A stretch of DNA of 35,580 bases from an uncultured Enterobacteriaceae bacterium (GTDB taxonomy: Bacteria > Myxococcota_A > UBA796 > GCA-2862545): positions 1 to 35,580 of the forward strand of contig CAYYHT010000001.1 of NCBI GenBank assembly GCA_964471355.1, in the 5' to 3' direction. Under the pieces are notes generated by a model. It saw nothing but the letters and a program-made list of their open reading frames with translations. It did not search any database and was not told the DNA's origin. Shown here piece after piece: positions 12-30,721 of the stretch (positions are counted from its first letter, which is position 1; each line of letters opens with the position of its first letter). The translations under genes and the position numbers were made by a program.

Positions 12-383
12 ATGGACGGCACCATGGCGCGCCGGTGGGAGCAGAGTCGGGTGCGCGCGAAACTGTCCTGTGTCTTGTGGGTGCCAATCGATGGTCGTCG
101 AAAGATTCCCCCTGCAAAGCGCGTCGTGAGGAAGCCGGTCCTGTGGAGGCCGACCGAAGAGCAGGAGGCACGCATGCGCGACGACTGGGAATTTCACGCC
201 GAGGCGATTGGCCTGGGCGAGCTGTGGCAGCTCGATGCGTCGAAAGGAGAAGTGCTGCAGGTGCGCCCCAAGGCCGCGAATAGCCGGGAACGGGTCTGGA
301 CCTATGACGACGAGGGCGAGCAGGTCGCCGAGAATCCTCGGGGCTTCTACCTGCGGCGCAGCTTTACGCGGACGCTGTTCTAG
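12..383 (+). CDS. hypothetical protein (123 aa; the frame is open to the left window edge, so the true start may lie upstream)
   Basis: ATG at 12. TAG at 381-383 directly abuts the ATG of the next gene (TAGATG). Codons show the G/C-ending bias of the rest of the window. No recognisable motif. Confidence 0.45.
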   Translation: MDGTMARRWEQSRVRAKLSCVLWVPIDGRRKIPPAKRVVRKPVLWRPTEEQEARMRDDWEFHAEAIGLGELWQLDASKGEVLQVRPKAANSRERVWTYDDEGEQVAENPRGFYLRRSFTRTLF

Positions 384-2045
384 ATGGCGCGTCGGCGCAT
401 CATCGAAGGCACCTGGACCTGCGGAGAATGCGACACCCAGAAGATCAAAGGGCGACACAAGGAGTGTCCATCCTGCGGGTCTCCGCGCGAGAAGCACGAG
501 GCGAAGTTCGACTTTGGCGGCACCACGGCCACCGGTGCATCCACCGAGCCGACGGTCACCGATGCCAAGGGACTCGAGCTGGCGCGGGCGGGCAGGGACT
601 GGGTCTGCAGCTACTGCGGAGCCTCGAACAGAGGCGATTTCGATAGCTGTGTGGAGTGTGCAGCGGCACGCGGCGATGCGGTCGAGGTCGACCTGGCCAC
701 GCCTCCCCCGGCGCCAAAAAAGAAGCGCAAGCGCGACGACGATGACGATGACGACATCAACTGGGAGACCCCTGCGGCAGCGGGCTTCTTCGGGCTGACC
801 GGGTGCTCGATCTTCATGGTGCTGGGACTGCTGTTTGGCATCCCGCTGGTCATGATCGTCTGCTTGGCTCCGATCTCAACCGATGCCACGGTGACCGAGA
901 ACACCTGGGTGCGGCAGAGCACGGTCGAACGCCTGGTTCCCCAAGACCAAGAGGGCTGGAAGAACCGCATGGACACCACCATGGCCTCGCCTCCACCTTC
1001 AAAGGAACTGGCGGCGGGAATGGGGCAGACCTACAGCTGCGAGACCAAGCAGTGCTGGCCGCGTCCTCCGGCAGGTGGCGGGCTTGCAAAGGTCACCGGC
1101 CGTTCCTGGAGCCGAACCATCAGCACCAAGCGCATGAGCGCCAGCAGTGGCAGCGGGTGGGATGAGCAGGTTCCGCGCGGTCGCGGCGCCTATCCATCCG
1201 GCGGCAGCGGAGGCGCCGAAGGGCTCGACGGAAGCGCGAACTGCCACAGCAAGCAGCGGGTGGCCGAGAAGTGCCGCAGCGTCAGCAAGAAGGTGGCGTG
1301 CGGCACCGACGAGCGCTGCACGGTCAATGACCTGGGCAACGGCTTTGCCGAAGAAGTGTGCACCGACCACACCCGCTACTGCACCGAGTCCGAACAGGTG
1401 TGCGACCCCGCCGAGTACGACCAGTGGTGCACCTGGACCATGTTGCGCTGGACCAGCGGACGTCGCGTCGACGCCACCGGCAGGCTCAATCAGCCGCACT
1501 GGCCATCCCTGCGGGCCCAGAGCGACGAGAGCGTGTCCAAGTCGTCGTCGTACTCGGTGCATGTCACCCCACTGGCCGGGGATGTGCAGCAGACGGTCAA
1601 GGTGAGCTCGGCGGACGCCCTGATGCGGCACCAGGTCGGCGCGCAGTACTTCTTCACCGGTGGCTCGTCGACGCCGGTTCCGAGGCGTCTGCTGAGGAAG
1701 ACCGGTGTGGACTGCGGAGACGGAATCACGCGGGACAGCTTGAGCAGCCGAGACCGCTGCCGCTACCAGACCTGGTCGTGGCACGATGACGCGCCCTTGT
1801 ACACCCGTGGCGATGGCAGCACCGCCTGGCCGGTGGTCGACCTGAAGGACGACGGCCGCGAGAAGCGAGCCGAGTGGGTCGACCTGAAGCTCGAGTGGGC
1901 GCGGGGCAGCAAGGAGCGCAGCCAAGACTTCTCGGTCGAGACCGACGAGGGCGGTCGGTGGCCCGTGGGCCGCGCGGTTCGGGTCAGCGTGAGTGCGGAC
2001 GGCAGCATTCGCGAGTGGGAAGAGGACAAGCCAGTGACGCGGTAG
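384..2045 (+). CDS. double zinc-ribbon membrane protein with a Cys-rich extracytoplasmic domain (553 aa)
   Basis: Two CxxC...CxxC zinc ribbons: C13/C16/C28/C31, and C75/C78/C89/C92 (the second reads WVCSYCGASN..CVEC, RanBP2-like). A KKKRKRDDDDDDD charge cluster lies at nt 717-755. One long hydrophobic segment spans about residues 133-163. It is followed by a roughly 390-aa domain with many Cys. Confidence 0.75.
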   Translation: MARRRIIEGTWTCGECDTQKIKGRHKECPSCGSPREKHEAKFDFGGTTATGASTEPTVTDAKGLELARAGRDWVCSYCGASNRGDFDSCVECAAARGDAVEVDLATPPPAPKKKRKRDDDDDDDINWETPAAAGFFGLTGCSIFMVLGLLFGIPLVMIVCLAPISTDATVTENTWVRQSTVERLVPQDQEGWKNRMDTTMASPPPSKELAAGMGQTYSCETKQCWPRPPAGGGLAKVTGRSWSRTISTKRMSASSGSGWDEQVPRGRGAYPSGGSGGAEGLDGSANCHSKQRVAEKCRSVSKKVACGTDERCTVNDLGNGFAEEVCTDHTRYCTESEQVCDPAEYDQWCTWTMLRWTSGRRVDATGRLNQPHWPSLRAQSDESVSKSSSYSVHVTPLAGDVQQTVKVSSADALMRHQVGAQYFFTGGSSTPVPRRLLRKTGVDCGDGITRDSLSSRDRCRYQTWSWHDDAPLYTRGDGSTAWPVVDLKDDGREKRAEWVDLKLEWARGSKERSQDFSVETDEGGRWPVGRAVRVSVSADGSIREWEEDKPVTR

Positions 2046-2151: not shown

Positions 2152-2325
2152 ATGGAAAACGTCGCCATCTTCTTTGCAGTCATCATCATGATCGGCGTCC
2201 GCATCACGGTCCGCCACCTCATCCGCGAGGCCCTCTTCGGACCTGCAGAGACCCAGAGCTCGTGGGAGCGCGTCTTGGCCGAAGAAGAAGCCAATGACCG
2301 CATGTTCGGCACTGTCGGCCGCTAA
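2152..2325 (+). CDS. small single-pass membrane protein (57 aa)
   Basis: ATG at 2152 is preceded by GGAG at 2141-2144. The N-terminus is hydrophobic (VAIFFAVIIMIGV). C-ending codon bias is very strong. The tool's ORF starts at GTG 2125, but the ATG with an SD is preferred. The stop overlaps the stop of the convergent gene. Confidence 0.45.
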   Translation: MENVAIFFAVIIMIGVRITVRHLIREALFGPAETQSSWERVLAEEEANDRMFGTVGR

Positions 2326-3725
2326 GAATCCGCCGACTGTGCCGCCAGCACCCCGCTGATCGCACAAAAGCTGACCCACTGACCTGGGTGGGTCGAGCTT
2401 CCACACAAGAACAGGTTGTCTGCCACCGGTGAGTGGTGAGGAATGCGTCCCTGGCGCATGAACTTCGCCGTCATGACTGGGTTCATGCTGTCCCGGTACA
2501 GGTGGTATTTGCGCCCCCATGACTGGGGAATGCGCGTATCGAGCACGGTGTGTTTTCGAATGCCCTGGTGCCACCAGTCCTCGCCGAGCATCTGATTGAG
2601 CAGCTCGGTCTGGCCTGGTTCGCCGACCCCGGCCGCCCAGGTGTGATCGGTCGGGCTGACCAGGCGGGCGTTGCCGATTCGCGTGCCGTCGACCGCCGCC
2701 GGATGGACCAGCACGCGGCATTTTTCGGTGGGCCCAGCCGTGCCCGAAGCGGGCAACCAGAACTGCAGAAAGGGCAGGTCGGCTTCGGCCTCGATGTCCA
2801 GGTAGGCGGCGACCCCTGGCGACTGCAGGGGCAGGGCTGTGAGCCTTGAGTTGAGGTCGGCGTCGGGCGGTGAGAGCAGCTCGGCATAGGTGCCCACACC
2901 CGCCGCATTGCTGAACACACGGTCGGCCGAGATGCGCTCGGAGCCGATCTCGACGCCCAGAATGCGCCGGCCATCGCGCACGATTCGCTCGACTCGCTCG
3001 CCCAGCCGGAAGCTCACACCGCAGGCGCGAGCCAAGTTCTCGAGTACCTCGGGGATTCTGCGAATGCCTCCCTGCACGATCCACGCGCCATGGGTGTGGA
3101 TGATCGGAGGCACAAAGGCCAGAGGAGCTGGGGCCTCGGAAAGGGGCTGGCCGGCGATGTGCGTCCAGATGGCCAGGGCATCGATCACCCGCTGCGGCAG
3201 GCCCGTGGAGTTGAGGTGGTGCTCGAGGCCGCGAAGCAAGAAGGGGATCTCGCGGAACAGCCCGCCGAAGAGCAGCGACAACGGACCCGGTCGGTCCTGC
3301 CGTTGAAGGGGTGCCAGGCGGTCATAGGTCGTCGCCATGTGCTCGATGTACGAGCGATAGGCCAGTCCAGAACCCCTGAATTCCGCCTCGAGGTGGTCGA
3401 CGGTCTTGTCGAGCTCGCGGTAGATCGACACGCGCGAGCCGTCGGGCCAGCGCACCCGGTAGGCCTCGTCGACGGGCAGGAAGTGCAGCAGCGCTTCAAT
3501 GTCGGCACCCAGCTGCTCAAAGGCCCAGGTGAGCCCTGGTCGGTCCAACAAGATGTACGGCCCGCCGTCGTAGCGTCGCTCCCCGAAGTCGACGCCACCA
3601 GCCAGCCCGCCGACCTTGTCTCTGGCTTCGATGACGGTCACGTGGTTGCCGGCCCGGGCCAGTGCGATGGCCGCTGCGAGTCCGCCCATGCCGGCACCGA
3701 TGACGATGTCCTGACTGGCACTCAT
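2322..3725 (-). CDS. phytoene-desaturase (CrtI/CrtD) family FAD-dependent oxidoreductase (467 aa)
   Basis: N-terminal Rossmann motif DIVIGAGMGGLAAAIALARAGNHVTVIEARDKVGG. C-terminal family signature LFLCGSSTHPGQWVSFCAISG. Start taken at ATG 3725 (MSASQ...), which overlaps the upstream stop as ATGA. The tool's longer ORF to 3839 would overlap the upstream gene. Confidence 0.85.
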   Translation of the reverse strand: MSASQDIVIGAGMGGLAAAIALARAGNHVTVIEARDKVGGLAGGVDFGERRYDGGPYILLDRPGLTWAFEQLGADIEALLHFLPVDEAYRVRWPDGSRVSIYRELDKTVDHLEAEFRGSGLAYRSYIEHMATTYDRLAPLQRQDRPGPLSLLFGGLFREIPFLLRGLEHHLNSTGLPQRVIDALAIWTHIAGQPLSEAPAPLAFVPPIIHTHGAWIVQGGIRRIPEVLENLARACGVSFRLGERVERIVRDGRRILGVEIGSERISADRVFSNAAGVGTYAELLSPPDADLNSRLTALPLQSPGVAAYLDIEAEADLPFLQFWLPASGTAGPTEKCRVLVHPAAVDGTRIGNARLVSPTDHTWAAGVGEPGQTELLNQMLGEDWWHQGIRKHTVLDTRIPQSWGRKYHLYRDSMNPVMTAKFMRQGRIPHHSPVADNLFLCGSSTHPGQWVSFCAISGVLAAQSADS

Positions 3726-6385
3726 GGTTTCTCCAAGAAGTCGTCGATCGCTGCGGCCACCCACTCGCTGCGGGCCCAGCTCATCCAGTGGGTGCCGTCT
3801 GGCACCGTGGTCAGCCGGGCCTCGGGCAGCAGTGCGCACAGGCGCTCGGCCTGGGGCAGCGGGAAGTGGTGGTCATGCTGGGCCCACAGCGCCAGCACCG
3901 GTGCCGTGATCTTCCAGTAGTGCTCGGGCAGTGACGCCAGCTCGATTTCGTAGGCATCGCACATCGCCGACAGCCACGCTCGAACAGCCGGTCGATGAAA
4001 GGCACCGGTGAAGTCCGCGTCCAGCTCGTCCGGCCACTCGGTTCCTGCAGGCAGGAACGTGCGCTTGCACTGGCGATAGACCAACCCGGGGGTCCAGGCA
4101 AAGGCGGTGCGCTGCAGTCCGCTGCGCCGCATCAGGGCGATCTCGGGGCTGGTCGGACCGTCGGCAAACAACAGGCTGTTCATGACCACGACGCGACGGA
4201 CTCGCTCGGGGCGGGTCGCGGCGAACAACAGCGCGGGCTGTCCACCCATGTCTTGGCCGACTAGCTGAACGGTGTCCAAGCCCCAGGCATCGAGCAAGTT
4301 CTCGAGCATGTCGGCCAGGGCGGCCGGTCCGGCGTCTTCTCCCCACTGCTCGCTGTAGCCTTGGCCGGGCCAATCAAACGCGATGACCTGGTGTCCGCGG
4401 GCCAGAATAGGCGCCATCCTGGACCAGATCTGAAGCGTCTCGGGGTAGCCGTGCAACAGGACGACAGGCGGACCCTCGCCGATTCGGCACACCCGCAACA
4501 GGCGGCCGTCGTGGCGTTCCCAGGTGACCGGCAACAGGACCTGGCCATGCTCCACCGTGGCTTCCGGCTCGGTCAGGGCCCTGACTAGGCTGCGTGCGGC
4601 CTTCAGCGCGGTTCCCGCCGGGTCGATCTCGGGGAAGGCAGCGGCATCCATATGGGGCACGAACAATGAGCCCTGCGCGCTGGCGTGGGTATAGACGGGC
4701 AGTGCCATGCGCGCTAGCAGGGCCGATCGACGGCTGTGGTCCGGGGCGTCCCACACGCCGATTGGCTCGTCGGGTCCCCGCACAACCGTGTCCTCTCGTG
4801 GGTCGCCGAACCAGTCAAAGGCGATCGAGACCAACATGTTGCTGGGAATGGGCTCGGCACCGATGTGGCGCGCCACAACTGCATCGAGCGCCACCGCGTC
4901 GCGGCTTGCGTACAGACGCATGGGCTGGCGAGGGTGCGGCTGGCCCATCATGCCCAACAGGCCATCGGGCACATCAGACCAGACATCGAGCATGGCGACA
5001 TGCGGTGGAAACGCGTCTGCCATCATCATCGCAGCGGTCTCGCGGTCGGCCTTTCTGTCCCCAAAGATGTAGGCGTCGTGCCGCTCTCCGAGGCCTTCGA
5101 GCGCGGCGAAGGACAGCATGGCGACCCCGGTCGGGTGGCCGCGCAGCTTGCCCAGGACGATGCGCAGGTCGGCATCGGCCCAGGTCGCACACACGCTGTG
5201 CTGCCCCAGTCCTCGGACGTATTCGTGGTCCCTCTGGTCGAGCTGGGCGTCGACGATGCGTATGTCTGGCGAGCCCAGCTGCAGGTAGTCGGCGACTTGG
5301 GCCACCGTTCGGTTGGCAAAGAAGCGGTCGTAGACGTTGCGGCTGTCGATGAGGGAGACCTCGCACCCGCGCTGGGCCAGCCACGCACAGAGCGCTGCCA
5401 TGAGCTTCGGCGACACGATGGGCGACGGGTCGTGGCGATTGGCGGCCAGCATGAACGTGGTCTTGATGGCGATCTTGGGCGCCTGTCCATGGTGCTTGAG
5501 CAGGGCGGGCAGTTCAATCGCCTCGAGTGTGGCGTGCAGCTCAGCCTGAAGGTCGGTGTGGCTGGCTCCCTCGCGCACGACGACCGTGCCGCCCTTGCCG
5601 AGTGGATTGGTCCAGGCGCGATCTCCGGCCTGGGGTTCCGCTAGAAAGCGCTGGCCGATCTCTCCGAGTTGCTCGAGCAGCCAATCGGCGGTGAGCGTGT
5701 CGTGCAGTGCGTCGTCGGGTCCGAACGAGTCGGCGAACAGCTCGAAGACCAGCGAGTGCCGGCGCTCGTCTTCTTTCATGCGCACAAAGGCGTCGATGTC
5801 GCTCTGGGTGCAGCCTGCAGCGGGTCCGAGCTCGGCCATTCGCGCCCAGCCCATGCCCGCTGTGCGCTCGGCGGCCACCGCGAAGTGACACCAGTCGCAG
5901 AATCGATTGAACTGAAGCTCAGCCCGCACTTCCGGCGGAATCCGTCCGGTAGCGTGTCCGGCGACTTCGAGTAGCTCGGCCACCAGGCGGGTCATCGGGG
6001 CATGGCGCCAGCGATTGTGCACTTGGCGGCTGCTTGTCCATCCGGCCACGCGCCCCTCGACTTGGGTGAGCCAGGCCTTGGCCCGCTCCGGCAAGCTGCC
6101 CTCGCGCAGGAGTGCTCCGCGGATGTACAGCGCGTGCATCTCTTCGTCGCGCCAGGCCCACCGAATCGCTCGCTGCACCGCGCTGCGTACTCTGGGCTCG
6201 ACCGGCATTCCGCTGAGGCGCTTGTGGATGACATCGCGGCGATACGCGACGGTGACGAGGTGCTCCCGTTCGAGGGCGAGCAGCCAAAGCCGCGTCATCT
6301 CGTCTTGAGGTCGCCCCTCATATTCCCGTTCCCAGTCGTCGAGTTGGAGTGCGAATCCGTGGATGATGGCTTGAAGATCGGCCAA
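3722..6385 (-). CDS. three-domain fusion protein (887 aa): N-terminal ferritin-like di-iron domain, central DUF362-like domain, C-terminal alpha/beta-hydrolase (epoxide-hydrolase/dehalogenase-like, Asp nucleophile)
   Basis: Residues 1-225 carry three ExxH motifs (EREH 39-42, EEMH 81-84, ERRH 207-210) in helical context. Residues about 300-525 match the DUF362 pattern (KIAIKTT...SPKLMAAL...ADLRIVLGKLRGHPTG...YASRDAVALDAV). Residues about 615-887 show the HGYP oxyanion motif, G-Q-D-M-G-G (Asp712, codon 4250-4252) and a C-terminal GTHW. The start is TTG at 6385 with no convincing SD, so it is uncertain. Confidence 0.85.
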   Translation of the reverse strand: MADLQAIIHGFALQLDDWEREYEGRPQDEMTRLWLLALEREHLVTVAYRRDVIHKRLSGMPVEPRVRSAVQRAIRWAWRDEEMHALYIRGALLREGSLPERAKAWLTQVEGRVAGWTSSRQVHNRWRHAPMTRLVAELLEVAGHATGRIPPEVRAELQFNRFCDWCHFAVAAERTAGMGWARMAELGPAAGCTQSDIDAFVRMKEDERRHSLVFELFADSFGPDDALHDTLTADWLLEQLGEIGQRFLAEPQAGDRAWTNPLGKGGTVVVREGASHTDLQAELHATLEAIELPALLKHHGQAPKIAIKTTFMLAANRHDPSPIVSPKLMAALCAWLAQRGCEVSLIDSRNVYDRFFANRTVAQVADYLQLGSPDIRIVDAQLDQRDHEYVRGLGQHSVCATWADADLRIVLGKLRGHPTGVAMLSFAALEGLGERHDAYIFGDRKADRETAAMMMADAFPPHVAMLDVWSDVPDGLLGMMGQPHPRQPMRLYASRDAVALDAVVARHIGAEPIPSNMLVSIAFDWFGDPREDTVVRGPDEPIGVWDAPDHSRRSALLARMALPVYTHASAQGSLFVPHMDAAAFPEIDPAGTALKAARSLVRALTEPEATVEHGQVLLPVTWERHDGRLLRVCRIGEGPPVVLLHGYPETLQIWSRMAPILARGHQVIAFDWPGQGYSEQWGEDAGPAALADMLENLLDAWGLDTVQLVGQDMGGQPALLFAATRPERVRRVVVMNSLLFADGPTSPEIALMRRSGLQRTAFAWTPGLVYRQCKRTFLPAGTEWPDELDADFTGAFHRPAVRAWLSAMCDAYEIELASLPEHYWKITAPVLALWAQHDHHFPLPQAERLCALLPEARLTTVPDGTHWMSWARSEWVAAAIDDFLEKP

Positions 6386-6438
6386 AGAGGACCCTGTGTG
6401 GAGCGAAATCCTAGCCCGTTCAGCGTAGAATCGCGCCC

Positions 6439-8175
6439 ATGACTCCGGACACCGTGCAATCCAACTCCCCGGCCCGCAGCGAAGCGGGCGGAAGTCGGCT
6501 GTACGAATGGCTGGCAGAGCCGTCGGATGGGCTGGCGCTGGACGATGCGGATCGGGATCTGTACCAGCTAAGCAACTGGGCGATGTTGCTCGGAATGACC
6601 TCGCACGCCATGTTTATGGGCGTCTTTGCTGTTCTCGATATTCCGGTGCTGGTCGCATCGAACATCGTCAGCGTGATGTGGTGGGGGGCGGCGCTGTGGC
6701 TGTCCAAGCGGGGCATGCTGATCATCGCCATGTACGTCGCGACGCTCGAGGTGGTGGTCAACGCCGTCCTCGTGACCGCCATGCTGGGGATCGGAGTCGG
6801 CTTTCACTACTACATCCTGCTGGCGATCGTGTTCCTGGCACAGTTTTCAATCGAGCCTATGCGCCGGCGGGCCATCGGCTCCACCTCGCTGGGTTTTGGC
6901 TATGTCTTGCTGATCGGCTGGGCATCGCAGAACGCCATGGTGCTTGTCGTTGATGACGCGGTGGTGGCCAGCTTTGGGGTGTTCAACGCCCTTGGCTTCA
7001 TCGGACTGTTGGTGGGGTTGTGCCTTTGGTACACCTACCGAGTTCAGCAAGATCGGCAGGGCCGACTGGACGCTGAACGGCGCCTGAGGCGGGCTCATCG
7101 GCACAACAGTGCCACGCTGAACTACATGGCCGACGGCCTGTTCACCGTCGACGCACAGGGCCTGGTCGCCTCGATGAACCAGTCGATGTCCTTCATGCTC
7201 TCGAGTCGTCCAAGTGCGGCGGGGGATCGCTCGCGCATTCCCCAGGGCTTGATCGATCTGGGCCACACCGCGATGTGGGAGGGCAAGGTCAAGCGACTCG
7301 AGCTGGCGTTGACCGACAACCGCACGGCGGCGGCGGTGGCCTCTCCGTTGCTGGCCGAAGATGGCGGCATGGCCGAAGGTGCCGTGGTGTTGGTGCGCGA
7401 CATCACGATCGACAAGGAGGTGGACCGCATGAAGACCGAGTTCACGTCGATGGTCTCCCACGAGCTTCGCACGCCGATGACGTCGGTGATTGGCTTCGCA
7501 AAAATCGTCAAAAACAAGCTAGAGAAGCAGGTTTTCCCTGTCGTCACCACCGACGATGCCAAGGTGCTCAAGTCGATCGGTCAGGTACGCCAGAATCTCG
7601 ACATCGTCGTCGATGAGGCGCAGCGATTGACCAATCTGATCAACGACGTGTTGGACATCGCCAAGATGGAGGCGGCCCAGGTCAGCTTCGCATCGAAGCC
7701 TGTACAGGCAGACGAGCTTGTGAAGCGGGCTCATGACGCATGTGCAGCGCTGTTCGAGCGGGGTGAGGTGACCCTGAAGACCGAAGTGGAGCAGGGCTTG
7801 CCGGCGGTGCTCGGCGACCGCGACCGTCTGCAGCAGGTGCTGGTCAATCTGGTCTCGAATGCATCGAAGTTCACAACAGAAGGCTCGGTCACCATCGAGG
7901 CGGCGCGCTTGGCAAACGCAGTGGTGTTCCGCGTACGCGACACGGGTCCCGGCATTCATATCGACGATCTCGTGCGGGTCTTCGACCGCTTCAGGCAGCT
8001 CGAGGGCGGCGACACGGACAAACCAAAGGGCACGGGACTTGGGCTGGCCATCTGCAAGCAGATCATCGAGGGCCACAAGGGAAAGATCCGCGCCGAGAGC
8101 ACACTTGGCCTTGGGTCGACCTTTCTGTTCGAGCTGCCCGTTGCCGAGTCAGTGAATCACGCAGATCTCCAATAG
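6439..8175 (+). CDS. sensor histidine kinase (578 aa): polytopic membrane N-terminus, PAS-like region, HisKA, HATPase_c
   Basis: About 5-6 hydrophobic segments in the first 200 aa. H-box SHELRTPMTSVIGF. N-box LVSNASKFT. G-boxes DTGPGI and GTGLGLAICK. No response regulator is adjacent. Confidence 0.9.
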   Translation: MTPDTVQSNSPARSEAGGSRLYEWLAEPSDGLALDDADRDLYQLSNWAMLLGMTSHAMFMGVFAVLDIPVLVASNIVSVMWWGAALWLSKRGMLIIAMYVATLEVVVNAVLVTAMLGIGVGFHYYILLAIVFLAQFSIEPMRRRAIGSTSLGFGYVLLIGWASQNAMVLVVDDAVVASFGVFNALGFIGLLVGLCLWYTYRVQQDRQGRLDAERRLRRAHRHNSATLNYMADGLFTVDAQGLVASMNQSMSFMLSSRPSAAGDRSRIPQGLIDLGHTAMWEGKVKRLELALTDNRTAAAVASPLLAEDGGMAEGAVVLVRDITIDKEVDRMKTEFTSMVSHELRTPMTSVIGFAKIVKNKLEKQVFPVVTTDDAKVLKSIGQVRQNLDIVVDEAQRLTNLINDVLDIAKMEAAQVSFASKPVQADELVKRAHDACAALFERGEVTLKTEVEQGLPAVLGDRDRLQQVLVNLVSNASKFTTEGSVTIEAARLANAVVFRVRDTGPGIHIDDLVRVFDRFRQLEGGDTDKPKGTGLGLAICKQIIEGHKGKIRAESTLGLGSTFLFELPVAESVNHADLQ

Positions 8176-12051: not shown

Positions 12052-13047
12052 ATGCCGGTCCTGCTCATCACGGGCGGAGTGCAGCGTAGTCCAGTAGGCA
12101 TTCAAGCGGCGACCGAGTGGAAGGCCTACCGCACCGGACGCATGCTGATGCTCGACACCGACACCGGCGAGGTCAGCCGAGTGCTGGACTATGCCTCTCC
12201 GACGGGTCGAATTCCGCCATCCGAGCCCAGCCACGTGTTCAAGGCGGGAGCATGGGTGGACGGTCGCTTGCTGCTGTGCACCCAGACCGAGGCGCTCTGG
12301 GTCGATCCCGAGTCCTTCGAGGTCACGGGCACCGTGTCTCATCCGTGGCTCAATGACGTGCACCATGTCGATGTCTTCGACGGCGGAATCCACTTCGCGA
12401 ATACCGGGCTGGACTGCCTGATTGTGCTTGAGCCAGACGGCGCATTGAGGCGCTGCGATCCGGCCCAGGACGAAGACCTCTGGGCCCGCTTCGACAAGGA
12501 CATCGACTACCGCACCGTGCCGACGACCAAGCCGCACAAGTCGCATCCGAACTACGTGTTCCGCACCAAGCATGGCGTGTGGCTCAATCGCTCCCTCGAC
12601 AAGGACGCCGTCTGCATGGACGACCGCAGCCGGGTGATCGACCTGACAGCCCCCGGTGTGCCCCATGACGGCATCGTGCGCCCCGATGGGGTCTGGTTCA
12701 CCACGACCGAGGGTCACCTGCTGCAGTGCGACCCCGACGCCGCCAAGGTGGTGCGCAACATCGAGCTGGGCACGCTCGATCCCGACGCAGCACCGACGCG
12801 CTGGTGTCGAGGACTGCACTTCCAAGACGACCTCGCCTATGTGGGCTTCAGCCGCCTGCGTCCGACCAAAGCCCGCGCGAACCTGTCATGGGTCAAGCGC
12901 AGCCTGGGCTTCAAGGACACTGCCACCCACAACAGCCGGGTCACGGCCTATGACCTCAAGGCCGGCAAGCTCGTGGGGTCCTGGGACATGGAGGAGCACG
13001 GTCTGAACGCCGTCTTCTCGATTCTGCCGCGCCGACCACTAAGCTAG
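12052..13047 (+). CDS. hypothetical protein, beta-propeller-like (331 aa); possibly DUF4915/TIGR03032-like (unverified)
   Basis: ATG 12052 is preceded by GAGGA at 12040-12044. The composition is repetitive and beta-strand-like, with an RGLHFQDDLAYVGFSRLR segment. The tool's ORF from 11779 overlaps the start of the divergent gene and was trimmed. Confidence 0.65.
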   Translation: MPVLLITGGVQRSPVGIQAATEWKAYRTGRMLMLDTDTGEVSRVLDYASPTGRIPPSEPSHVFKAGAWVDGRLLLCTQTEALWVDPESFEVTGTVSHPWLNDVHHVDVFDGGIHFANTGLDCLIVLEPDGALRRCDPAQDEDLWARFDKDIDYRTVPTTKPHKSHPNYVFRTKHGVWLNRSLDKDAVCMDDRSRVIDLTAPGVPHDGIVRPDGVWFTTTEGHLLQCDPDAAKVVRNIELGTLDPDAAPTRWCRGLHFQDDLAYVGFSRLRPTKARANLSWVKRSLGFKDTATHNSRVTAYDLKAGKLVGSWDMEEHGLNAVFSILPRRPLS

Positions 13048-15020
13048 CGCGCTTGGCCGCTCAGTCCTCGCCTGGCACGCTCGGCTTGATCGGAGTCGGG
13101 GTAGTCCCGCAGCAGCTCTTCGTACAGGGCCCGGGCCCGAGCGGGCGCGCCGGCCTCGTACACCCGTGCCCATCGGTCGGCGGCTCGTAGGAGCAGCTCG
13201 GGCGGCTTGCGAAAGCTCGGGTGCTCGCGCCAGAGCTTCTCTTGTGCCCTTGCTGCGGCCCCAAGCAGGCCGGCGCTGCGCAGATCGCCCGCGTAGTCTT
13301 CGAGGGCGTCGGCAAGGGCCTCTTCGACATCCTCGCGGTCCTCGCGCACATCCTTGATGGCTTCTTCAACATAGCGCTTGGCGTCGTCGCCCTTGGTCTC
13401 GGACGCGAGCATCTCGGCGAGCAGCTTCTCGAGGGCGTCTGTGTCGCCGAAAGCCCGCAGGTGGTCCTTTCTGGCGTGCCAGGTGTATCGGTGCTCTGGC
13501 CACTTGCGAATCATCTGTTCGAGGGCCCGGTCCGCTTCGTCGAACCGCCCTCCCTTTCGCAGCAGGCCCAGGTCACTGCGCGCGGTGTAGGGGCGATATC
13601 CCTCGGCATCGATGTCTTTGAGCCGGTCAGATGCCCGTTGTGCCGCCTCCAGTTGCTTTGGGAGCGTCTCGTCTCGAGCGCGGACTAGGTCGTCGACCTC
13701 CCAGCCGCGGTCCGTGGCGACGGCGATGAGATTGCCGTAGCCGGCCGAATGACCGGTTGCCTTGTACCGCAATGAGATGACGTACAGGTCGTGGTCGCGG
13801 GCTTCGACGCCGGGATGGTCCCTGAGGAAGGTCGCCCAGGCGTTGCATGGCTCGACCACCCGCCGCAGGTCGGGCTCATCGGTGCAGTGACTGTCCAGGA
13901 CCTGCTCGCGGCGTTGCAGTCGCCTGTTCTCTTCGACGTCGGCGGTGCGGGCGCGCTCCTCCTTCTTGATCAGCTCGATCAGCCGATCGAGGGACTGCCG
14001 GACTTGATTGAACTGCGGCGACTGTGGGTAGCGCTCGACGAAGGCTTGGCCCCAGGACAGAATCGCCGCGCGCTCGCGAAGCTCGTCTGCTGCCCGAAAC
14101 ACGGTCCACATGCCGACTTCATTGATCGACACATCCCACTGCCCGGTGCCGGTGCGGACTGACTCATCGAGCTCGAGGTTCAGCAGCTTTCTTCCCAGGA
14201 GCATGCGCTCGCTTGCGGCCAGGGTCTGCGCCCCCCGAAGGTCTTTGACCGCTGCGATGAGCGCTTCGTCATCGACGGGGTCTGCGGCATAGGCATCGAA
14301 CGCCACGAAGAGCCGCTTGGCTTCGGCATCCATCGCCTTTTCACGAATGACCTGGGCTGCCTTGAGGGTGCCCTCAAGCTCGGTCAGTCTGGCGGTGGCG
14401 TCCCCGAAGCCCGAGTCGTGGGACAGCGCTCTCTCGAAGCGCCGCTCGGCGTCCGCGATGGCGCCTTGGTCCAGTGCTTCTAGTCCCTCGGACCACGCCT
14501 TGAAGGCCGCGAAGGACTCGGTCGACACCCGTCCGACCTTGGCGGCTTCCCGCGCCGAGACGCTGACTCCAAGCTCTTCTGTCAGGGCCAGGGCAAGGTC
14601 CTTTTCGACCAAAAAGAACTCGGCCCGCGTGCCCTCTGCAGACACCGCGTCGACCAGCTTTCCACTGCGCACATCGACAATGCGGGCGTCCAGGCGCATC
14701 TGTGGCTCGATGGCGCTGATGCTTCCGACCAGAATCCACTTGGCTCCGACTCCATTGCCCGCTTTGGCGGCGGTCTTGGGGTCGATGAAGTCCGATTCGG
14801 TCAGCTTGAGCTCTTCGAGCACGTCGGCCAGCCTCGAGCGCTCGACCAGCTGCAGCCCGGCCACATGGGAGAGGTCGGTGGTCAGCATGTCGGCGATGCC
14901 CACGCCCAATGCGTCGTACTGCTCGTCCCCGGTGTGGTTGTCGAAGGGCAGGACCGCAAGGGTTGGCGTGCCTGCATGTGCAGCCGTGAGCCAGAGCCAT
15001 GTGAGCAGAAGAGCGGTCAT
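13044..15020 (-). CDS. secreted TPR/helical-repeat protein with an N-terminal LpoB/FlgO/CsgG-like domain (658 aa)
   Basis: Signal peptide LLTWLWLTAAHAG. The N-domain pattern is LAVLPFDNHTGDEQYDALGVGIADMLTTDL...LVERSRLADVLEELKL...GAKWILVGSI. The C-terminal 450 aa are alpha-helical and TPR-like. Confidence 0.75.
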   Translation of the reverse strand: MTALLLTWLWLTAAHAGTPTLAVLPFDNHTGDEQYDALGVGIADMLTTDLSHVAGLQLVERSRLADVLEELKLTESDFIDPKTAAKAGNGVGAKWILVGSISAIEPQMRLDARIVDVRSGKLVDAVSAEGTRAEFFLVEKDLALALTEELGVSVSAREAAKVGRVSTESFAAFKAWSEGLEALDQGAIADAERRFERALSHDSGFGDATARLTELEGTLKAAQVIREKAMDAEAKRLFVAFDAYAADPVDDEALIAAVKDLRGAQTLAASERMLLGRKLLNLELDESVRTGTGQWDVSINEVGMWTVFRAADELRERAAILSWGQAFVERYPQSPQFNQVRQSLDRLIELIKKEERARTADVEENRRLQRREQVLDSHCTDEPDLRRVVEPCNAWATFLRDHPGVEARDHDLYVISLRYKATGHSAGYGNLIAVATDRGWEVDDLVRARDETLPKQLEAAQRASDRLKDIDAEGYRPYTARSDLGLLRKGGRFDEADRALEQMIRKWPEHRYTWHARKDHLRAFGDTDALEKLLAEMLASETKGDDAKRYVEEAIKDVREDREDVEEALADALEDYAGDLRSAGLLGAAARAQEKLWREHPSFRKPPELLLRAADRWARVYEAGAPARARALYEELLRDYPDSDQAERARRGLSGQAR

Positions 15021-15071
15021 GGAGGCAGCCTAACGGCGGGTTGGGGGTGGCCAATCGATTGACATGCCTGG

Positions 15072-16024: not shown

Positions 16025-17806
16025 ATGTCCAGTGAAGAACCGTCCAGTTTTGCGTCCTTTGAGCTCGATGACCGACTCGCATCTGCGGTTGCCGATCTCG
16101 GGTTCGAAAACGCTACGCCCATCCAGGCTGCGGCCATTCCGGCCCTGTTGACCGGTGTCGATGTCATTGGGCGAGCCCGCACGGGTTCGGGCAAGACCGC
16201 AGCCTTCGGCCTGCCCTTGCTCGAGAAGGTCAAGGAAGGCGGCAAGAAGGTGCGTGCCGTCGTGCTCGCTCCCACCCGTGAGCTGGCGATTCAGGTCACT
16301 CAGGCCATCAAGTCCTATGGGGCGCACCTGCCCCAGGTTCGCATGCTGACCATCTACGGTGGTGCTTCTTTCCAGGCCCAGGCGGCGGCACTCAGGCGCG
16401 GTGTCAGCGTTGTTGTCGGCACTCCCGGGCGTGTGCTCGACCATCTCAATCGCGGCACCCTCGACCTGTCCAATGTCGAGGTCTTCGTGCTCGACGAGGG
16501 CGACGAGATGCTGCGCATGGGCTTCATCGACGACGTCGAGGCCATTCTGTCGGCGACTCCCCAAGAGCGCCAGGTGGCGCTGTTCTCGGCGTCGATGCCC
16601 GACCGCATTCGCAAGATCGCCACCCGCTACATGAACGACCCACAGATCGTCCAGGTCGAGAGCAAGGCGCTCACGGTCGATCACATCAAGCAGTACTGGA
16701 TGCTCGTTCCCCAGCGGCACAAGCTCGACGCGCTCGAGCGTCTGTTGGCTGTCCACGAGGGCACCAAGCTGGTCTTTGCCCGCACACGACGCGGATGCGC
16801 CGAGGTAGCCGACGCACTGGCAAAGCGCGGCATGGCCGTCGACGCCCTGCACGGCGACCTGAATCAGTCCGCTCGCGAGCGTGTGCTGCAGCGACTTCGC
16901 GCCAAGAGCCTCGGCGTGGTCATCGCCACCGATGTTGCTGCGCGCGGCATCGACGTCGAGCACATCGCCATGGTCATCAACCTCGACCTGCCCGAGGAAT
17001 ACGAGACCTATGTGCACCGCATCGGCCGGACCGGTCGAGCGGGTCGCAGCGGCGTGGCCATCAGCCTGTCGACTCCCAAGCAGAAGCGCTTCATTCGCGA
17101 CTTGGCTCGCACGCTCAAGGTCGACATCGAGGCCATGGATGTGCCCAGTGACCGGGCCATCGGAATGCAGCGTCGCGGACTGCTGCGGACAGCCCTCGAA
17201 GGTGCTCTTGAGCACCCCGACATCGATGCCGCCCACGCCCTGATGGACGAGATTCTCGAGGGCTCTGAGGTTCGCCGACGCGACCTCGCGGCGGCCGCCA
17301 TCGCTCTGCTGGCCGGGGACCGGAAGATCCGCTTGGCGACTGCAGTCGACGAGGCACCGCCAAACTGGGCCCGCCCGACAAGCTCCTTTGGCCGCGGCCA
17401 AGGCGACGGGCCACGTCGCGATGCCCCCCCTCGTCCGAACTGGGACAACGTGGACATGGTCGAGCTGTTCCTGCCCATCGGACGTCGTGACAACGTTCGT
17501 GCGGGCGATCTGGTCGGCGCCATCGCCAACGAGGCCGACATCCCAGGCAACGCCATCGGGCGCATTCAGATCTTCGACAACAAGTCCTTTGTGGGCCTGC
17601 CTCGTGAGCTCGCCGAGCGTGTCCTGCATCAGTTCAGCGAAATCGCGGTTCGCGGCCGCTCGGTGCCCATCTCGGTCTCCAAGCAGCGTGACCAGGACTT
17701 CAGCGGTCCTCGTCCCCAAAAGCGCGCACCCAACCAGCGCAACAAGTGGGGCAAGGGCGGCGGCAGGCGGCCCGGTGGCTTCAAGCCCGGAAAGTGGCGG
17801 CGCTAG
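16025..17806 (+). CDS. deaD: DEAD-box ATP-dependent RNA helicase, DeaD/CsdA type (593 aa)
   Basis: Q motif (TPIQ), motif I ARTGSGKT, Ia PTRELA, Ib TPGR, V ATDVAARGIDV, VI HRIGRTGRAGRSG. There is a C-terminal DbpA-like RNA-binding domain and a basic Gly/Arg/Lys tail. Motif II reads DEGD and motif III reads SAS. Confidence 0.92.
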   Translation: MSSEEPSSFASFELDDRLASAVADLGFENATPIQAAAIPALLTGVDVIGRARTGSGKTAAFGLPLLEKVKEGGKKVRAVVLAPTRELAIQVTQAIKSYGAHLPQVRMLTIYGGASFQAQAAALRRGVSVVVGTPGRVLDHLNRGTLDLSNVEVFVLDEGDEMLRMGFIDDVEAILSATPQERQVALFSASMPDRIRKIATRYMNDPQIVQVESKALTVDHIKQYWMLVPQRHKLDALERLLAVHEGTKLVFARTRRGCAEVADALAKRGMAVDALHGDLNQSARERVLQRLRAKSLGVVIATDVAARGIDVEHIAMVINLDLPEEYETYVHRIGRTGRAGRSGVAISLSTPKQKRFIRDLARTLKVDIEAMDVPSDRAIGMQRRGLLRTALEGALEHPDIDAAHALMDEILEGSEVRRRDLAAAAIALLAGDRKIRLATAVDEAPPNWARPTSSFGRGQGDGPRRDAPPRPNWDNVDMVELFLPIGRRDNVRAGDLVGAIANEADIPGNAIGRIQIFDNKSFVGLPRELAERVLHQFSEIAVRGRSVPISVSKQRDQDFSGPRPQKRAPNQRNKWGKGGGRRPGGFKPGKWRR

Positions 17807-17808
17807 CA

Positions 17809-18639
17809 GTGCTGAACACACTCATCGAGGCGGACTGCCTGGATGCCCTTCCGGACGTGCCCGACGCCTGTGTTAACCTCGTGCTGGTCGACTTGCCCTA
17901 TGGCACCACCGAGAACAAGTGGGACTCGGTCATTCCGCTTGAGCCGCTGTGGAAGCAGTGGTGGCGAATTCTCAAGCCGAATGGAGCGGTCGTGCTCACC
18001 GGGCAAGGACCGTTCACCGCCCGGTTGATCCTGAGCCAAGAGAAGTTCTTCAAGTACAAGCTGGTGTACATCAAGAGCAAGCCGACCAACTTCCTCAACG
18101 CCAAGAAGCAGCCCCTGCGAAAGCACGAGGACGTGTGCGTCTTCTATCGAAAGCAGCCGACCTACAACCCTCAGATGACCCCGGGCGAGCCCTATGACAA
18201 GGGCGTGCGCAAGAACCAACTGACGGGCTCCTATGGCGACTTCAACGCCGTGCGTGTCAAGAGCGACGGCGCTCGGTACCCCACCGACGTGCAGTACTTC
18301 AAGACCGCCGAGAGCGAAGGCAAGGTCTGGCACGCGACCCAGAAACCCGTGGCACTCGGCAGGTACCTCGTGCGTACATACACCCAGCCCGGCGACACGG
18401 TGCTCGACTGCTGCTTTGGCTCGGGGAGCTTTCTGGTGGCCGCGCTATCCGAGGGGCGAAACTTCATCGGTATGGAGCAGAACTCGAAGATGCGGATGTT
18501 CAAAAACCGGCATGTGGACTACATCGACGTCGCTCGGCGGCGCCTGGCAAGCACCTGGTCCGATCTGCAGCCGCCAATGCGGGATTGCGTCGCGGTGGTC
18601 GGCGAGATCGCGGACATCGGCTACAGTGCCCCCCAATGA
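17809..18639 (+). CDS. site-specific DNA methyltransferase, N6_N4_Mtase family, beta-class motif order (276 aa), solitary
   Basis: Motif IV-like VLVDLPYG lies N-terminal. HATQKPVAL and the AdoMet motif VLDCCFGSGSF lie C-terminal. GTG start at 17809 begins 2 nt after the deaD TAG. The TGA overlaps the next ATG. No restriction endonuclease gene is adjacent. Confidence 0.85.
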   Translation: MLNTLIEADCLDALPDVPDACVNLVLVDLPYGTTENKWDSVIPLEPLWKQWWRILKPNGAVVLTGQGPFTARLILSQEKFFKYKLVYIKSKPTNFLNAKKQPLRKHEDVCVFYRKQPTYNPQMTPGEPYDKGVRKNQLTGSYGDFNAVRVKSDGARYPTDVQYFKTAESEGKVWHATQKPVALGRYLVRTYTQPGDTVLDCCFGSGSFLVAALSEGRNFIGMEQNSKMRMFKNRHVDYIDVARRRLASTWSDLQPPMRDCVAVVGEIADIGYSAPQ

Positions 18640-26508: not shown

Positions 26509-26967
26509 TCAGCTCTCAGTACAGGTCGCGTTGGTACCACTGAAGCTACACGACAGGCTGCTGTTGCCCTTGATAGGCCCCCAGCTGGCCCGTTTTGCGC
26601 CCTGGAAGAAGACCCGGCAGCCGATGCCACGGTCGAGTGGAACACCGGTCATGCTGCACTGGTTGCCGTTGAAGTTGCAGCGCTTGCGAAATCCCGTCTC
26701 GGTGCAGCTGATCTCAGCGGCGTTGTAGGCCGAGCCCGGCTTCACCTTGATCGTGATCGGGCCTTCGGTTGCCTTCTTGGGCATGGCTGCCAGTTTCTTG
26801 CGACGTGCCTTCTTTTGCTTGGCGCTCTTGCGAGAGGCCGTGTCGTCCCAGTCTTCTTCAGCCGTGTCGAGCTTCTCTTCGGTGTCTTCCTTTTCTTCTT
26901 CGAAGAGTCCGGCACAGCCGAGCGACATCGCGCTCACCAGAACGATCGAGAACCAAGCTCGTCTCAC
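26509..26967 (-). CDS. small Cys-rich lipoprotein (152 aa)
   Basis: The GTG start at 26967 overlaps the upstream TGA (GTGA). Signal and lipobox read RRAWFSIVLVSAMSLGC|A. An acidic then basic linker (EEEKEDTEEK...KQKKARRKK) is followed by a roughly 85-aa domain with 6 Cys. Confidence 0.65.
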   Translation of the reverse strand: MRRAWFSIVLVSAMSLGCAGLFEEEKEDTEEKLDTAEEDWDDTASRKSAKQKKARRKKLAAMPKKATEGPITIKVKPGSAYNAAEISCTETGFRKRCNFNGNQCSMTGVPLDRGIGCRVFFQGAKRASWGPIKGNSSLSCSFSGTNATCTES

Positions 26968-29759: not shown

Positions 29760-30721
29760 AATTCCACCACCATGCCGATAGTTGCGAGGCCAACCGCTGT
29801 GGCCAGCGCCCCCTGGGCGGCGTAGCCCATTGTGTTCGAGGTCGAGCGAAGCCCGTCGAGCTCATCGACCGGAGTGTTCGGGTCATTGAAGGCGCCCTTG
29901 GCGCTCGAGGAAACGCCGTACAGAGCCATGCCCAGCAGCGCCGAGCCCCCAGCAGCAGCCAGAATCGGAACGTTGGGGCCGAGTTCGGGTTCGGGGTCTT
30001 CTGGGGGACGCGGCTCCGGAATTGGGATGGCGTCGTTGCCGTCGGCAGCGGTCTCGACTGCATCGCCTTCCCAAAGTGGCGGAGCCTCGGGAATGACTTC
30101 GGGTTCGACCTCGGCGACAGGTTCGACGTAGTTGGCCCACTCGGGAAGGTCGGCGCCCGGGCTGACGTAGACGGTCTCGGTGACCGCGCCATCTGCGCCC
30201 AGGAGCTGAAGGATGGTCGGCAGACCGTCGGGCCGCGTGTCGTTGGCTTTGCCATCGACCACAGCGCTGTGTTCGGGGGGCAGCACCAGCTCGACTCGCT
30301 CGGCGACCGGCACTCCGACCGCCACGGTGTAGCCATTGCGCAGGGTTGAGCCCCGGCCGGCGATGGTCATCGGGAAGATGTAGGTCTTGTCGGCCTCGAC
30401 GGCAGCCCGGAAGGACGGAGCCATCTCGTCGGGCTTGTCGAGCAGATCGGCACCGATTGCCTTGAGGCGATGGTAGGCCGCTGCGTCTGGGGCAGTCAGG
30501 GCCTCGCTCAGGCAATCGAGGTGTGTGGCTGCAGAGGTCTGAGCCGCGGTGAATCCTTCCTTGTCGGGTGTGCGCGCACCGTCCACGTCGCGCTTGGCAA
30601 AGGCGTCGATGGCGAGCGACAGGTCGTCCGAGAGAGTGGCCACCGTCGCGGGGCAGTCCGCCTGTGCGAGAGCTGGGACCAACAATACGGCTATCAACGT
30701 AGCAATGCCGGGGTTCTGCAA
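29756..30721 (-). CDS. secreted or membrane-anchored protein (321 aa): helical N-domain, beta-rich middle, Pro/Glu linker, C-terminal hydrophobic hairpin
   Basis: The TTG start at 30721 is preceded by a strong SD (GGAGGA, 4-5 nt spacing). Signal peptide IATLIAVLLVPALAQA. Linker PEVIPEAPP...PEPRPPEDPEPE. The C-terminus is Gly/Ala-rich and hydrophobic, ending VVEF. Confidence 0.7.
   Translation of the reverse strand: MQNPGIATLIAVLLVPALAQADCPATVATLSDDLSLAIDAFAKRDVDGARTPDKEGFTAAQTSAATHLDCLSEALTAPDAAAYHRLKAIGADLLDKPDEMAPSFRAAVEADKTYIFPMTIAGRGSTLRNGYTVAVGVPVAERVELVLPPEHSAVVDGKANDTRPDGLPTILQLLGADGAVTETVYVSPGADLPEWANYVEPVAEVEPEVIPEAPPLWEGDAVETAADGNDAIPIPEPRPPEDPEPELGPNVPILAAAGGSALLGMALYGVSSSAKGAFNDPNTPVDELDGLRSTSNTMGYAAQGALATAVGLATIGMVVEF

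Follow-up and report, generated by a model that had tools for sequence, protein, structure and literature searches.

BoxABC and PaaABCDE are multi-component pathways in which CoA thioesters are epoxidised by a di-iron enzyme. Enzymes of the CrtI family act on C–C bonds of long hydrophobic chains, which they dehydrogenate or isomerise. One phytoene-desaturase-like FAD enzyme, UfaD, acts on phospholipid acyl chains and pairs with UfaO, an O2-incorporating protein of a domain-of-unknown-function (DUF) family (PMC7380195). DUF362, a widespread family without assigned chemistry, shares Pfam clan CL0471 with DUF2088, the domain of the nickel-pincer enzyme LarA (PMC11770544), and is frequently fused to, or found with, Fe–S-binding domains (PMC5742341). 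Here we describe a locus in a 35,580-nt stretch of Myxococcota DNA (contig CAYYHT010000001.1, positions 1 to 35,580; hereafter the window), in which positions 2322–6385 of the minus strand encode an 887-aa fusion of a putative di-iron domain (the N-domain), a DUF362 domain and an alpha/beta hydrolase, together with a CrtI-like flavoprotein. In these two genes we see the Myxococcota form of a conserved and self-contained cassette of three enzymes. We tentatively favour the view that its three activities carry out a sequential, O2-dependent oxidation of one hydrophobic substrate.

We rate the system as kin to multi-component di-iron/flavin oxidative systems. By functional analogy, it would follow the same operon logic as BoxABC and PaaABCDE, i.e. 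a di-iron oxygenase, a flavin partner and a hydrolytic opener of a ring or epoxide, and two lineages carry the gene of the 'core' (the N-domain–DUF362 protein, ∼616 aa when it lacks the fused hydrolase) next to a crotonase or CoA-transferase gene. However, the core has no detectable homology to BoxB or PaaA, its flavoprotein is CrtI-like and not a ferredoxin–NAD(P) reductase, and the hydrolytic component is an alpha/beta hydrolase instead of a protein of crotonase or aldehyde-dehydrogenase fold. The flavoprotein resembles UfaD in being paired with a partner, here a putatively O2-dependent one from an uncharacterised family (PMC7380195). Judged by sequence, each module appears to fall in a known superfamily; the two non-DUF modules fail curated functional models, while the DUF362 Pfam model is matched but carries no function. 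For the combination of modules no counterpart was found in the literature searched (DUF362, PF04015, COG2006, and phytoene desaturase with epoxide hydrolase and diiron), nor did the searches under DUF362, PF04015 or COG2006 return a functional study of that family. The cassette supplies DUF362 with defined partners, namely a predicted di-iron site, a CrtI-like flavoprotein and an Asp-type hydrolase, and gives a testable handle on an uncharacterised family.

Gene order and distribution of the cassette

The two-gene unit and its borders are laid out as follows, in coordinates of the window:

2322..3725, minus strand: gene of the CrtI-family FAD flavoprotein, 467 aa (open reading frame, ORF, and Pfam Amino_oxidase match)
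3722..3725, minus strand: ATGA stop/start overlap between fusion gene and flavoprotein gene (sequence aaaccATGAgtgcc)
3722..6385, minus strand: fusion gene, 887 aa, N-domain plus DUF362 plus alpha/beta hydrolase (ORF with TTG start and TGA stop)
6386..6438, no strand assigned: intergenic region of 53 bp between the fusion gene and the histidine-kinase gene, presumed promoter region
6439–8175, plus strand: histidine-kinase gene, divergent from the fusion gene

In aaaccATGAgtgcc, the TGA of the fusion gene and the ATG of the flavoprotein gene share 4 nt, and the TTG start of the 887-aa ORF is consistent with the N-termini of aligned homologues. Because the divergent kinase gene lies 53 bp upstream and a convergent 553-aa ORF without Pfam matches closes the unit 3′ of the flavoprotein gene, 2322–6385 is a two-gene operon. 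A promoter scan of the region upstream of the fusion gene returned no sigma-70-like consensus, and all terminator-like matches in the scan were inside coding sequence. Neither protein of the unit has a predicted membrane segment, and the window holds no tRNA or Rfam element.

To begin with the fusion itself, a search of 5.8 billion proteins returned a JGI metagenome protein (P0001) that is 100% identical to the 887-aa protein, and about 45 clusters with the full three-part fusion (850–900 aa) from Sandaracinaceae and other Myxococcota. The same search gave > 70 clusters of ∼616 aa with just the N-domain and DUF362. The names that members carry from NCBI go no further than 'alpha/beta fold hydrolase', 'DUF362 domain-containing protein' or 'hypothetical protein'. 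In a scan of one genome per species, 206 species-level genomes encoded a relative, spread over Myxococcota, Acidobacteriota, Planctomycetota, Verrucomicrobiota, Armatimonadota and other phyla. Gene order was then surveyed in 83 non-redundant loci, 72 of which have enough sequence; all three parts were present in 62 of these 72. The 83 loci divide as follows:

56 loci: core, flavoprotein, hydrolase
6 loci: core–hydrolase fusion, flavoprotein
1 locus: fusion, with the flavoprotein absent within 2.1 kb
8 loci: core, flavoprotein, then the contig end
1 locus: core, flavoprotein, without hydrolase
8 loci: core alone
3 loci: contig end directly after the core

In Acidobacteriota, Planctomycetota and other phyla, the parts are adjacent genes in the order N-domain–DUF362, flavoprotein, hydrolase; the hydrolase gene that follows core and flavoprotein at loci of the 616-aa type encodes 270 aa, and the genes of the cassette overlap or lie a few bases apart. 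Both in the closest genome (L001; 65% identity, 6.87-Mb contig) and in a Sandaracinaceae metagenome-assembled genome (L002), the flavoprotein gene comes after the fusion gene, and the two again share 4 nt. In one lineage even the core is split (L096, 279–2194; L097, 198–2113), into an N-domain gene of 260 aa and, 25 nt further on, a DUF362 gene of 347 aa; the gene after DUF362 in this split form begins MKRAIVVGGGAGGL, an FAD-binding motif. The parts thus occur in three independent arrangements (split, adjacent and fused), which span at least six phyla and give strong genomic evidence that they function together or on one pathway. Clustering of all ORFs in the 83 loci revealed no fourth conserved neighbour, the maximum of 13 loci reflecting lineage synteny, and the histidine kinase is likewise not among the conserved neighbours.

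The core region was used for a neighbour-joining tree, in which the eight fusion sequences formed one clade, with two core-only Myxococcota sequences as its sister group; the fusion therefore arose once. That the 887-aa protein stems from faulty assembly or a frameshift, or from an isolated event, has next to no probability. The ∼45 clusters are independent, coming from NCBI, ENA, JGI and Logan assemblies and including the 6.87-Mb contig, and the reading frame is continuous, with the linker and the hydrolase N-terminus conserved; no sign of an artefact was found in the window, and what could be cited in its favour are damaged copies elsewhere (P0129 and locus L093, both with deletions or frameshifts).

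These results bear on several claims of an initial annotation of the window. Its three-module fusion is genuine and conserved, the ATGA overlap at 3722–3725 with the CrtI-like gene is present in the sequence and may give the matched stoichiometry that it suggested, and this neighbour is conserved and tightly coupled in relatives, fusion and CrtI-like gene recurring together in Myxococcota as it had proposed to check. Its view that the set matches no described pathway also stands, as neither an NCBIfam model nor a paper covering the system was found. Its description of the modules as 'normally separate' does not hold, because the N-domain occurs almost only attached or adjacent to DUF362. The hydrolase is a separate gene in most relatives, but it is adjacent there, unlike the separate and unlinked genes that the annotation had named as grounds for giving up the idea.

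One finding weighs against sequential oxidation by the three activities: eight loci hold the core gene without either partner. The neighbours at these loci are functionally unrelated (GT87, Dus, PBP, FHA and kinases).

Several variants of the cassette deserve mention. A 1006-aa ORF (P0129, in L088, 82–4164) joins the core to a truncated flavoprotein; behind it come a remnant ORF of 81 aa and an intact hydrolase gene. We considered it as a third functional fusion, of core and flavoprotein, and rejected this: it lacks the FAD-binding N-terminus, and with the 81-aa remnant behind it we treat it as a decaying copy. The identical sequence occurs on three contigs of different sample origin, so decay of the cassette seems a better account than faulty assembly. 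A stand-alone N-domain gene of 249 aa (P0144, in L094, 1–2144) lies after an NAD-dependent epimerase/3-beta-HSD gene, with no DUF362 gene visible within the short contig; the same type of short-chain dehydrogenase/reductase (SDR) gene lies upstream of the core gene at an Actinomycetota locus (L006), there with a crotonase gene in between. In a 1274-aa protein (P0187), the core is followed by CAP, fibronectin-III and DUF4214 domains. Another (P0096, in L061) has a hydrophobic N-terminal extension of ∼180 residues before the N-domain, at a locus with the flavoprotein and without the hydrolase.

The N-domain and the DUF362 region

The features of the core, as encoded in the window, are:

5621..6385, minus strand: N-domain, residues 1–∼255, all-helical, ferritin/rubrerythrin-like putative di-iron domain (AlphaFold2, AF2, model and ligand pattern)
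6263..6271, minus strand: codons of E39-R40-E41 in helix A, one Glu being the predicted first carboxylate ligand (conservation)
6134..6148, minus strand: D80-E81-E-M-H84 motif in helix B, ExxH ligand pair with preceding Asp (conservation)
5867..5869, minus strand: codon of E173 in helix C, predicted third carboxylate ligand (conservation; mid-helix in 162–186)
5756..5770, minus strand: D206-E207-R-R-H210 motif in helix D, second ExxH ligand pair (conservation)
4556..5620, minus strand: DUF362 region, residues ∼256–610, LarA-like alpha/beta fold (Pfam PF04015, AF2, Foldseek)

Three ExxH motifs lie in the N-domain, EREH (39–42), DEEMH (80–84) and DERRH (206–210). Against a mean of 0.83 in shuffled sequences, three in residues 1–225 is mildly above chance (P about 0.04), and conservation was more telling. 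D80, E81, H84, E173, D206, E207 and H210 occur without exception in the 120 relatives, and E39 and E41 are present in all 119 aligned, while H42 occurs in just three of 120, the position being mostly Q, E or A. As H42 is rare and E39/E41, E173 and the two DExxH motifs are invariant, the conserved pattern reads as E...(D)ExxH...E...(D)ExxH, the predicted ligands of a classical ferritin-like di-iron carboxylate site. This pattern is shared with soluble acyl-ACP desaturases, aldehyde-deformylating oxygenase and the R2 protein of ribonucleotide reductase (RNR).

The AF2 model of the N-domain (pLDDT 83) is all-helical, with long helices at 26–47, 64–95, 162–186 and 194–220. Each predicted ligand lies mid-way on one of these four helices, which are connected by a hairpin, a long crossover and a second hairpin, the ferritin-like order; helix order and lengths agree with the ferritin-like family. 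The modelled N-domain resembles ferritin-like di-iron proteins such as Rubrerythrin (PF02915) in having four long helices, two hairpins and a long crossover, with invariant E, (D)ExxH, E and (D)ExxH at mid-helix. It differs from them in a conserved insert of ∼65 residues (96–161) between helices B and C, in being almost solely fused or adjacent to DUF362, and in lacking a significant sequence or fold match to solved members.

Several results weigh against the ferritin-like assignment. Pfam gave no match for residues 1–300 of the window protein. Weak Rubrerythrin matches recurred in 18 of 31 relatives (best E 1.9e-5), mostly under the gathering score: the sole relative above it was P0191 (25.1 bits versus 22.8), the others scoring 13–22.7 bits. 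Foldseek with the N-domain model returned nothing from the PDB at E ≤ 0.001, the best matches being ferritin (TM 0.54, probability 0.8, E about 1) and the di-iron enzyme PolF (TM 0.39), and a profile of 31 N-domains found nothing significant among PDB sequences. The non-significant profile matches were a designed maquette and an acyl-ACP desaturase (E 0.76, over the ER...DExRH stretch). AF2 confidence is also low at residues 112–160. Without a significant Foldseek match, fold membership is argued from helix order and ligands, and on these grounds of sequence and model we conclude that the N-domain is probably a divergent ferritin-like domain with an intact predicted di-metal ligand set.

The stretch between helices B and C (residues 96–161, window 5903–6100) has pLDDT values of 42–57, yet it contains conserved residues: G111, G115, W116, H123, W126, P130 and G143 are invariant or near-invariant. 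Possible roles for this stretch are those of a lid, an interface with a partner or an additional ligand site. An internal duplication of the N-domain was considered and not demonstrable; hhalign of the two halves aligned just the DExxH motif, with a probability of 1.3%. When an N-domain-only profile was run against 1.84 billion representatives, 413 clusters were found, and the best 150 of these all belonged to the N-domain/DUF362 family or were fragments of it. The domain is found almost exclusively attached or adjacent to DUF362.

With regard to this part of the protein, the initial annotation was borne out on its quoted motifs (the three above and, in the hydrolase, HGYP, GQDMGG and GTHWM) and on the identity of the middle region as DUF362. 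Its three-ExxH di-iron signature survives in part: E81/H84 and E207/H210 are found in 120/120 relatives, but H42 in 3/120, and E173 (120/120) had been missed. Among the domain matches it expected, PF04015 centrally and Abhydrolase_1 C-terminally were obtained, but the ferritin-like N-terminal match is absent in the window copy; and the structural check it proposed yielded a four-helix model with the ligands at mid-helix but no significant Foldseek match.

The DUF362 assignment is clear. Pfam placed DUF362 (PF04015) at residues 305–506 with E 3.3e-11 and 44.0 bits against a cutoff of 24, over profile positions 1–200 of 200, and all relatives checked also scored above gathering. No NCBIfam model exists for the core protein. 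Residues 256–625 were modelled by AF2 with pLDDT 93, and the sole significant Foldseek neighbours of this region were LarA and LarA-like nickel-pincer racemases: 18 LarA-family chains at E ≤ 0.001 (4e-6 to 8e-4) and probability 1.0, with TM values of just 0.33–0.41 and 10–16% identity. While the fold is alike and the Pfam clan shared (CL0471; PMC11770544), the window protein matches the DUF362 model and not that of DUF2088: the LarA sequence model (PF09861) gave no match in Pfam or NCBIfam. Genes of the larB, larC or larE type are absent among the annotated ORFs of the window and are not conserved neighbours in the 83 loci. A PDB profile search meant to align DUF362 with LarA was dominated by hydrolase matches. 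In the alignment of the family, K413, R415 and H417 are conserved in the DUF362 region. As DUF362 is fused to Fe–S domains elsewhere and to a predicted di-iron domain here, the analogy suggests that it may work alongside a redox module.

The same evidence bears on the main rival to sequential oxidation, a terminal oxidase. Here the di-iron domain would reduce O2 (or H2O2) to water and so re-oxidise DUF362 or the flavoprotein, and the substrate would just be dehydrogenated and then hydrolysed. PTOX, the di-iron oxidase downstream of plant phytoene desaturase, provides a parallel. The closest Pfam family of the N-domain, Rubrerythrin, comprises peroxide- or O2-reducing proteins; the Fe–S domains fused to DUF362 elsewhere are electron-transfer domains for which a di-iron domain could substitute in aerobes (PMC5742341); and CrtI-type desaturases require an electron acceptor, O2 dependence having been observed for UfaD (PMC7380195). 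On the other hand, O2-activating desaturases and hydroxylases typically show DExxH...DExxH with a preceding Asp as well, the one hint from the PDB, which was not significant, pointed to an acyl-ACP desaturase, and the core is kept without the flavoprotein in the eight core-only loci. Pfam also detected no quinone- or rubredoxin-type partner domain. We regard a terminal oxidase as unlikely, and continue to favour oxidation of the substrate itself.

The flavoprotein and the hydrolase

The flavoprotein matches Pfam Amino_oxidase (residues 13–463) and NAD_binding_8, and carries the FAD-binding motif GAGMGG at residues 10–15. In NCBIfam it comes closest to crtI_fam and CrtD, and its best solved relatives, over residues 6–290, are a CrtD-like desaturase (4rep, E 7e-20) and CrtI (4dgk, E 6e-18). 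Orthologues that adjoin the DUF362 gene in other phyla are 46–79% identical and conserve a C-terminal motif, THPGQWVSF...SG. The protein thus shares with CrtI and CrtD the N-terminal FAD-binding fold. Two points weigh against a close kinship: the crtI_fam score (TIGR02734) of 140.6 bits is below the cutoff of 238.1, with the CrtD models also far under theirs, and the CrtI alignment is limited to the first 290 residues, the C-terminal half being divergent. PADLOC gave just a generic FAD-motif match, and a defence system was rejected.

From these matches, it could be proposed, in line with the narrower suggestion of the initial annotation, that the cassette is specific to carotenoids or squalene, and that a carotenoid or triterpenoid end group would be desaturated, epoxidised or hydroxylated and then hydrolysed. 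Pigmentation is common in the host phyla, and many of them produce hopanoids. Yet crt, hpn and shc genes are not conserved neighbours in the 83 loci, the flavoprotein falls below the crtI_fam cutoff and diverges in its substrate-binding half, CrtI-like enzymes also use fatty-acyl chains (PMC7380195), and partner-less lineages have acyl-CoA enzymes as neighbours of the core. As carotenoid and squalene genes are not linked, we do not favour a role restricted to carotenoids, possible though it is, and tailoring of this kind strikes us as improbable.

The third activity is encoded as the C-terminal part of the fusion:

3725..4510, minus strand: alpha/beta-hydrolase domain, residues ∼626–887, with HGYP at 645–648, nucleophile Asp712 and His866 (Pfam Abhydrolase_1)

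Abhydrolase_1 was matched at residues 639–870 (E 3.8e-33), with GQDMGG at 710–715 and GTHWM at 864–868. Among 57 hydrolase orthologues, H645-G-Y-P648, D712-M-G, H840-F841 and H866-W867 are invariant, which confirms the HGYP motif, Asp nucleophile and His base that the initial annotation had assigned to this module; Y812, Y823, E748 and D791 are ≥ 93% conserved. The fused hydrolase is 50% identical to the stand-alone hydrolases of three-gene cassettes, which have the same HGYP and Asp. Its N-terminal half (110 residues) matches epoxide hydrolases and fluoroacetate dehalogenases (E ∼1e-13), and with these enzymes and haloalkane dehalogenases it shares the HGxP oxyanion motif, the elbow Asp (G-x-D-M-G-G) and the C-terminal His. 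In place of the Trp or Arg found after the nucleophile in these families, the hydrolase has Met, Met713 being invariant at the position of the haloalkane-dehalogenase Trp. Haloalkane dehalogenase models scored 48–60 bits, below cutoffs of 241–466.

Three observations weigh against an epoxide hydrolase in particular. The expected catalytic acid, D838, is present in the window copy but < 93% conserved, and so not invariant; the conserved Y812 and Y823 have a spacing of just 11 residues, whereas the lid Tyr pairs of known epoxide hydrolases are spaced differently; and the best full-length matches are Ser-type C–C hydrolases and enol-lactonases, 3-oxoadipate enol-lactonases being also the best NCBIfam matches. 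Going by its motifs, the hydrolase would use an Asp nucleophile of the epoxide-hydrolase/dehalogenase type and lies outside every curated family.

The lactonase matches allow yet another reading, a module that breaks down or detoxifies a soluble small molecule (an amine, lactone, halogenated or aromatic acid) and would combine an amine-oxidase-type dehydrogenase with a lactonase or dehalogenase. Membership of the flavoprotein in the Amino_oxidase family fits this, as do the hydrolase's matches to enol-lactonases first and to dehalogenases also, the movement of the cassette as a unit among unrelated genomic contexts and the lack of membrane segments in its proteins. However, no transporter or regulator is consistently linked in the 83 loci, the Asp nucleophile is atypical of lactonases, Met713 replaces the haloalkane-dehalogenase Trp, and past its FAD-binding region the flavoprotein resembles CrtI and CrtD only. 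We consider such a module quite improbable, and retain a hydrophobic chain as the preferred substrate.

Proposed pathway and other features of the window

We propose that the substrate is a fatty-acyl or isoprenoid chain, in which the flavoprotein would first dehydrogenate or isomerise a C–C bond. The predicted di-iron site, whose DExxH...DExxH pattern appears suited to O2 activation, would then oxidise the product with O2, by epoxidation or hydroxylation, with DUF362 binding substrate or cofactor next to the metal site or feeding it electrons. Finally, the hydrolase, whose predicted Asp nucleophile and HGxP motif seem suited to opening an epoxide or similar electrophile, would resolve the product via a covalent Asp-ester, e.g. 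from epoxide to diol. In one Myxococcota lineage that includes the window, the hydrolase gene would have relocated, so that the hydrolase became joined to the core at its C-terminal end, giving the 887-aa polypeptide.

As to the substrate, one partner-less lineage carries the core gene after genes for a PlsC-type acyltransferase, an SDR and a crotonase, and another has it beside a CoA-transferase and a carboxyltransferase. Because acyl-CoA or lipid genes adjoin the core in these lineages, they give weak hints of a fatty-acyl or CoA-linked substrate; that such neighbours are confined to few lineages weighs against it. If desaturation, oxygenation and hydrolysis do act in turn on membrane lipids or isoprenoids, an unrecognised metabolite would be made by host groups that are abundant in soil and water and poorly studied biochemically. 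A bolder version, which we hold to be somewhat unlikely, is that the core represents a new class of O2-dependent di-iron enzyme, in which the LarA-like DUF362 would carry the substrate or cofactor site, and that with its partners it makes or remodels an undescribed oxidised lipid or isoprenoid in Acidobacteriota, Planctomycetota and Myxococcota. This would provide the first biochemical function for DUF362.

Elsewhere in the window, a 123-aa ORF (12–383, plus strand) matches just the C-terminal half of MutH (Pfam profile 51–103 of 103). The 553-aa ORF that converges on the cassette (384–2045, plus strand) lies directly after it and has no Pfam, NCBIfam or PADLOC match, and an N6/N4 DNA methylase gene (17692–18639, plus strand) is found 15 kb away; the three may be what is left of a restriction-modification or nicking system. 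A 965-aa protein (26964–29861, minus strand) with three MopE-type putative copper-binding motifs and FG-GAP repeats, an unusual pairing, is probably a surface protein. A 661-aa protein (13044–15029, minus strand) combines an N-terminal CsgG/LpoB-like lipoprotein domain with C-terminal TPR. In the closest genome, a CsgG-domain gene (L001, 15911–16909) is located ∼5 kb from the cassette; because it lies on the opposite side, this is not simple synteny.

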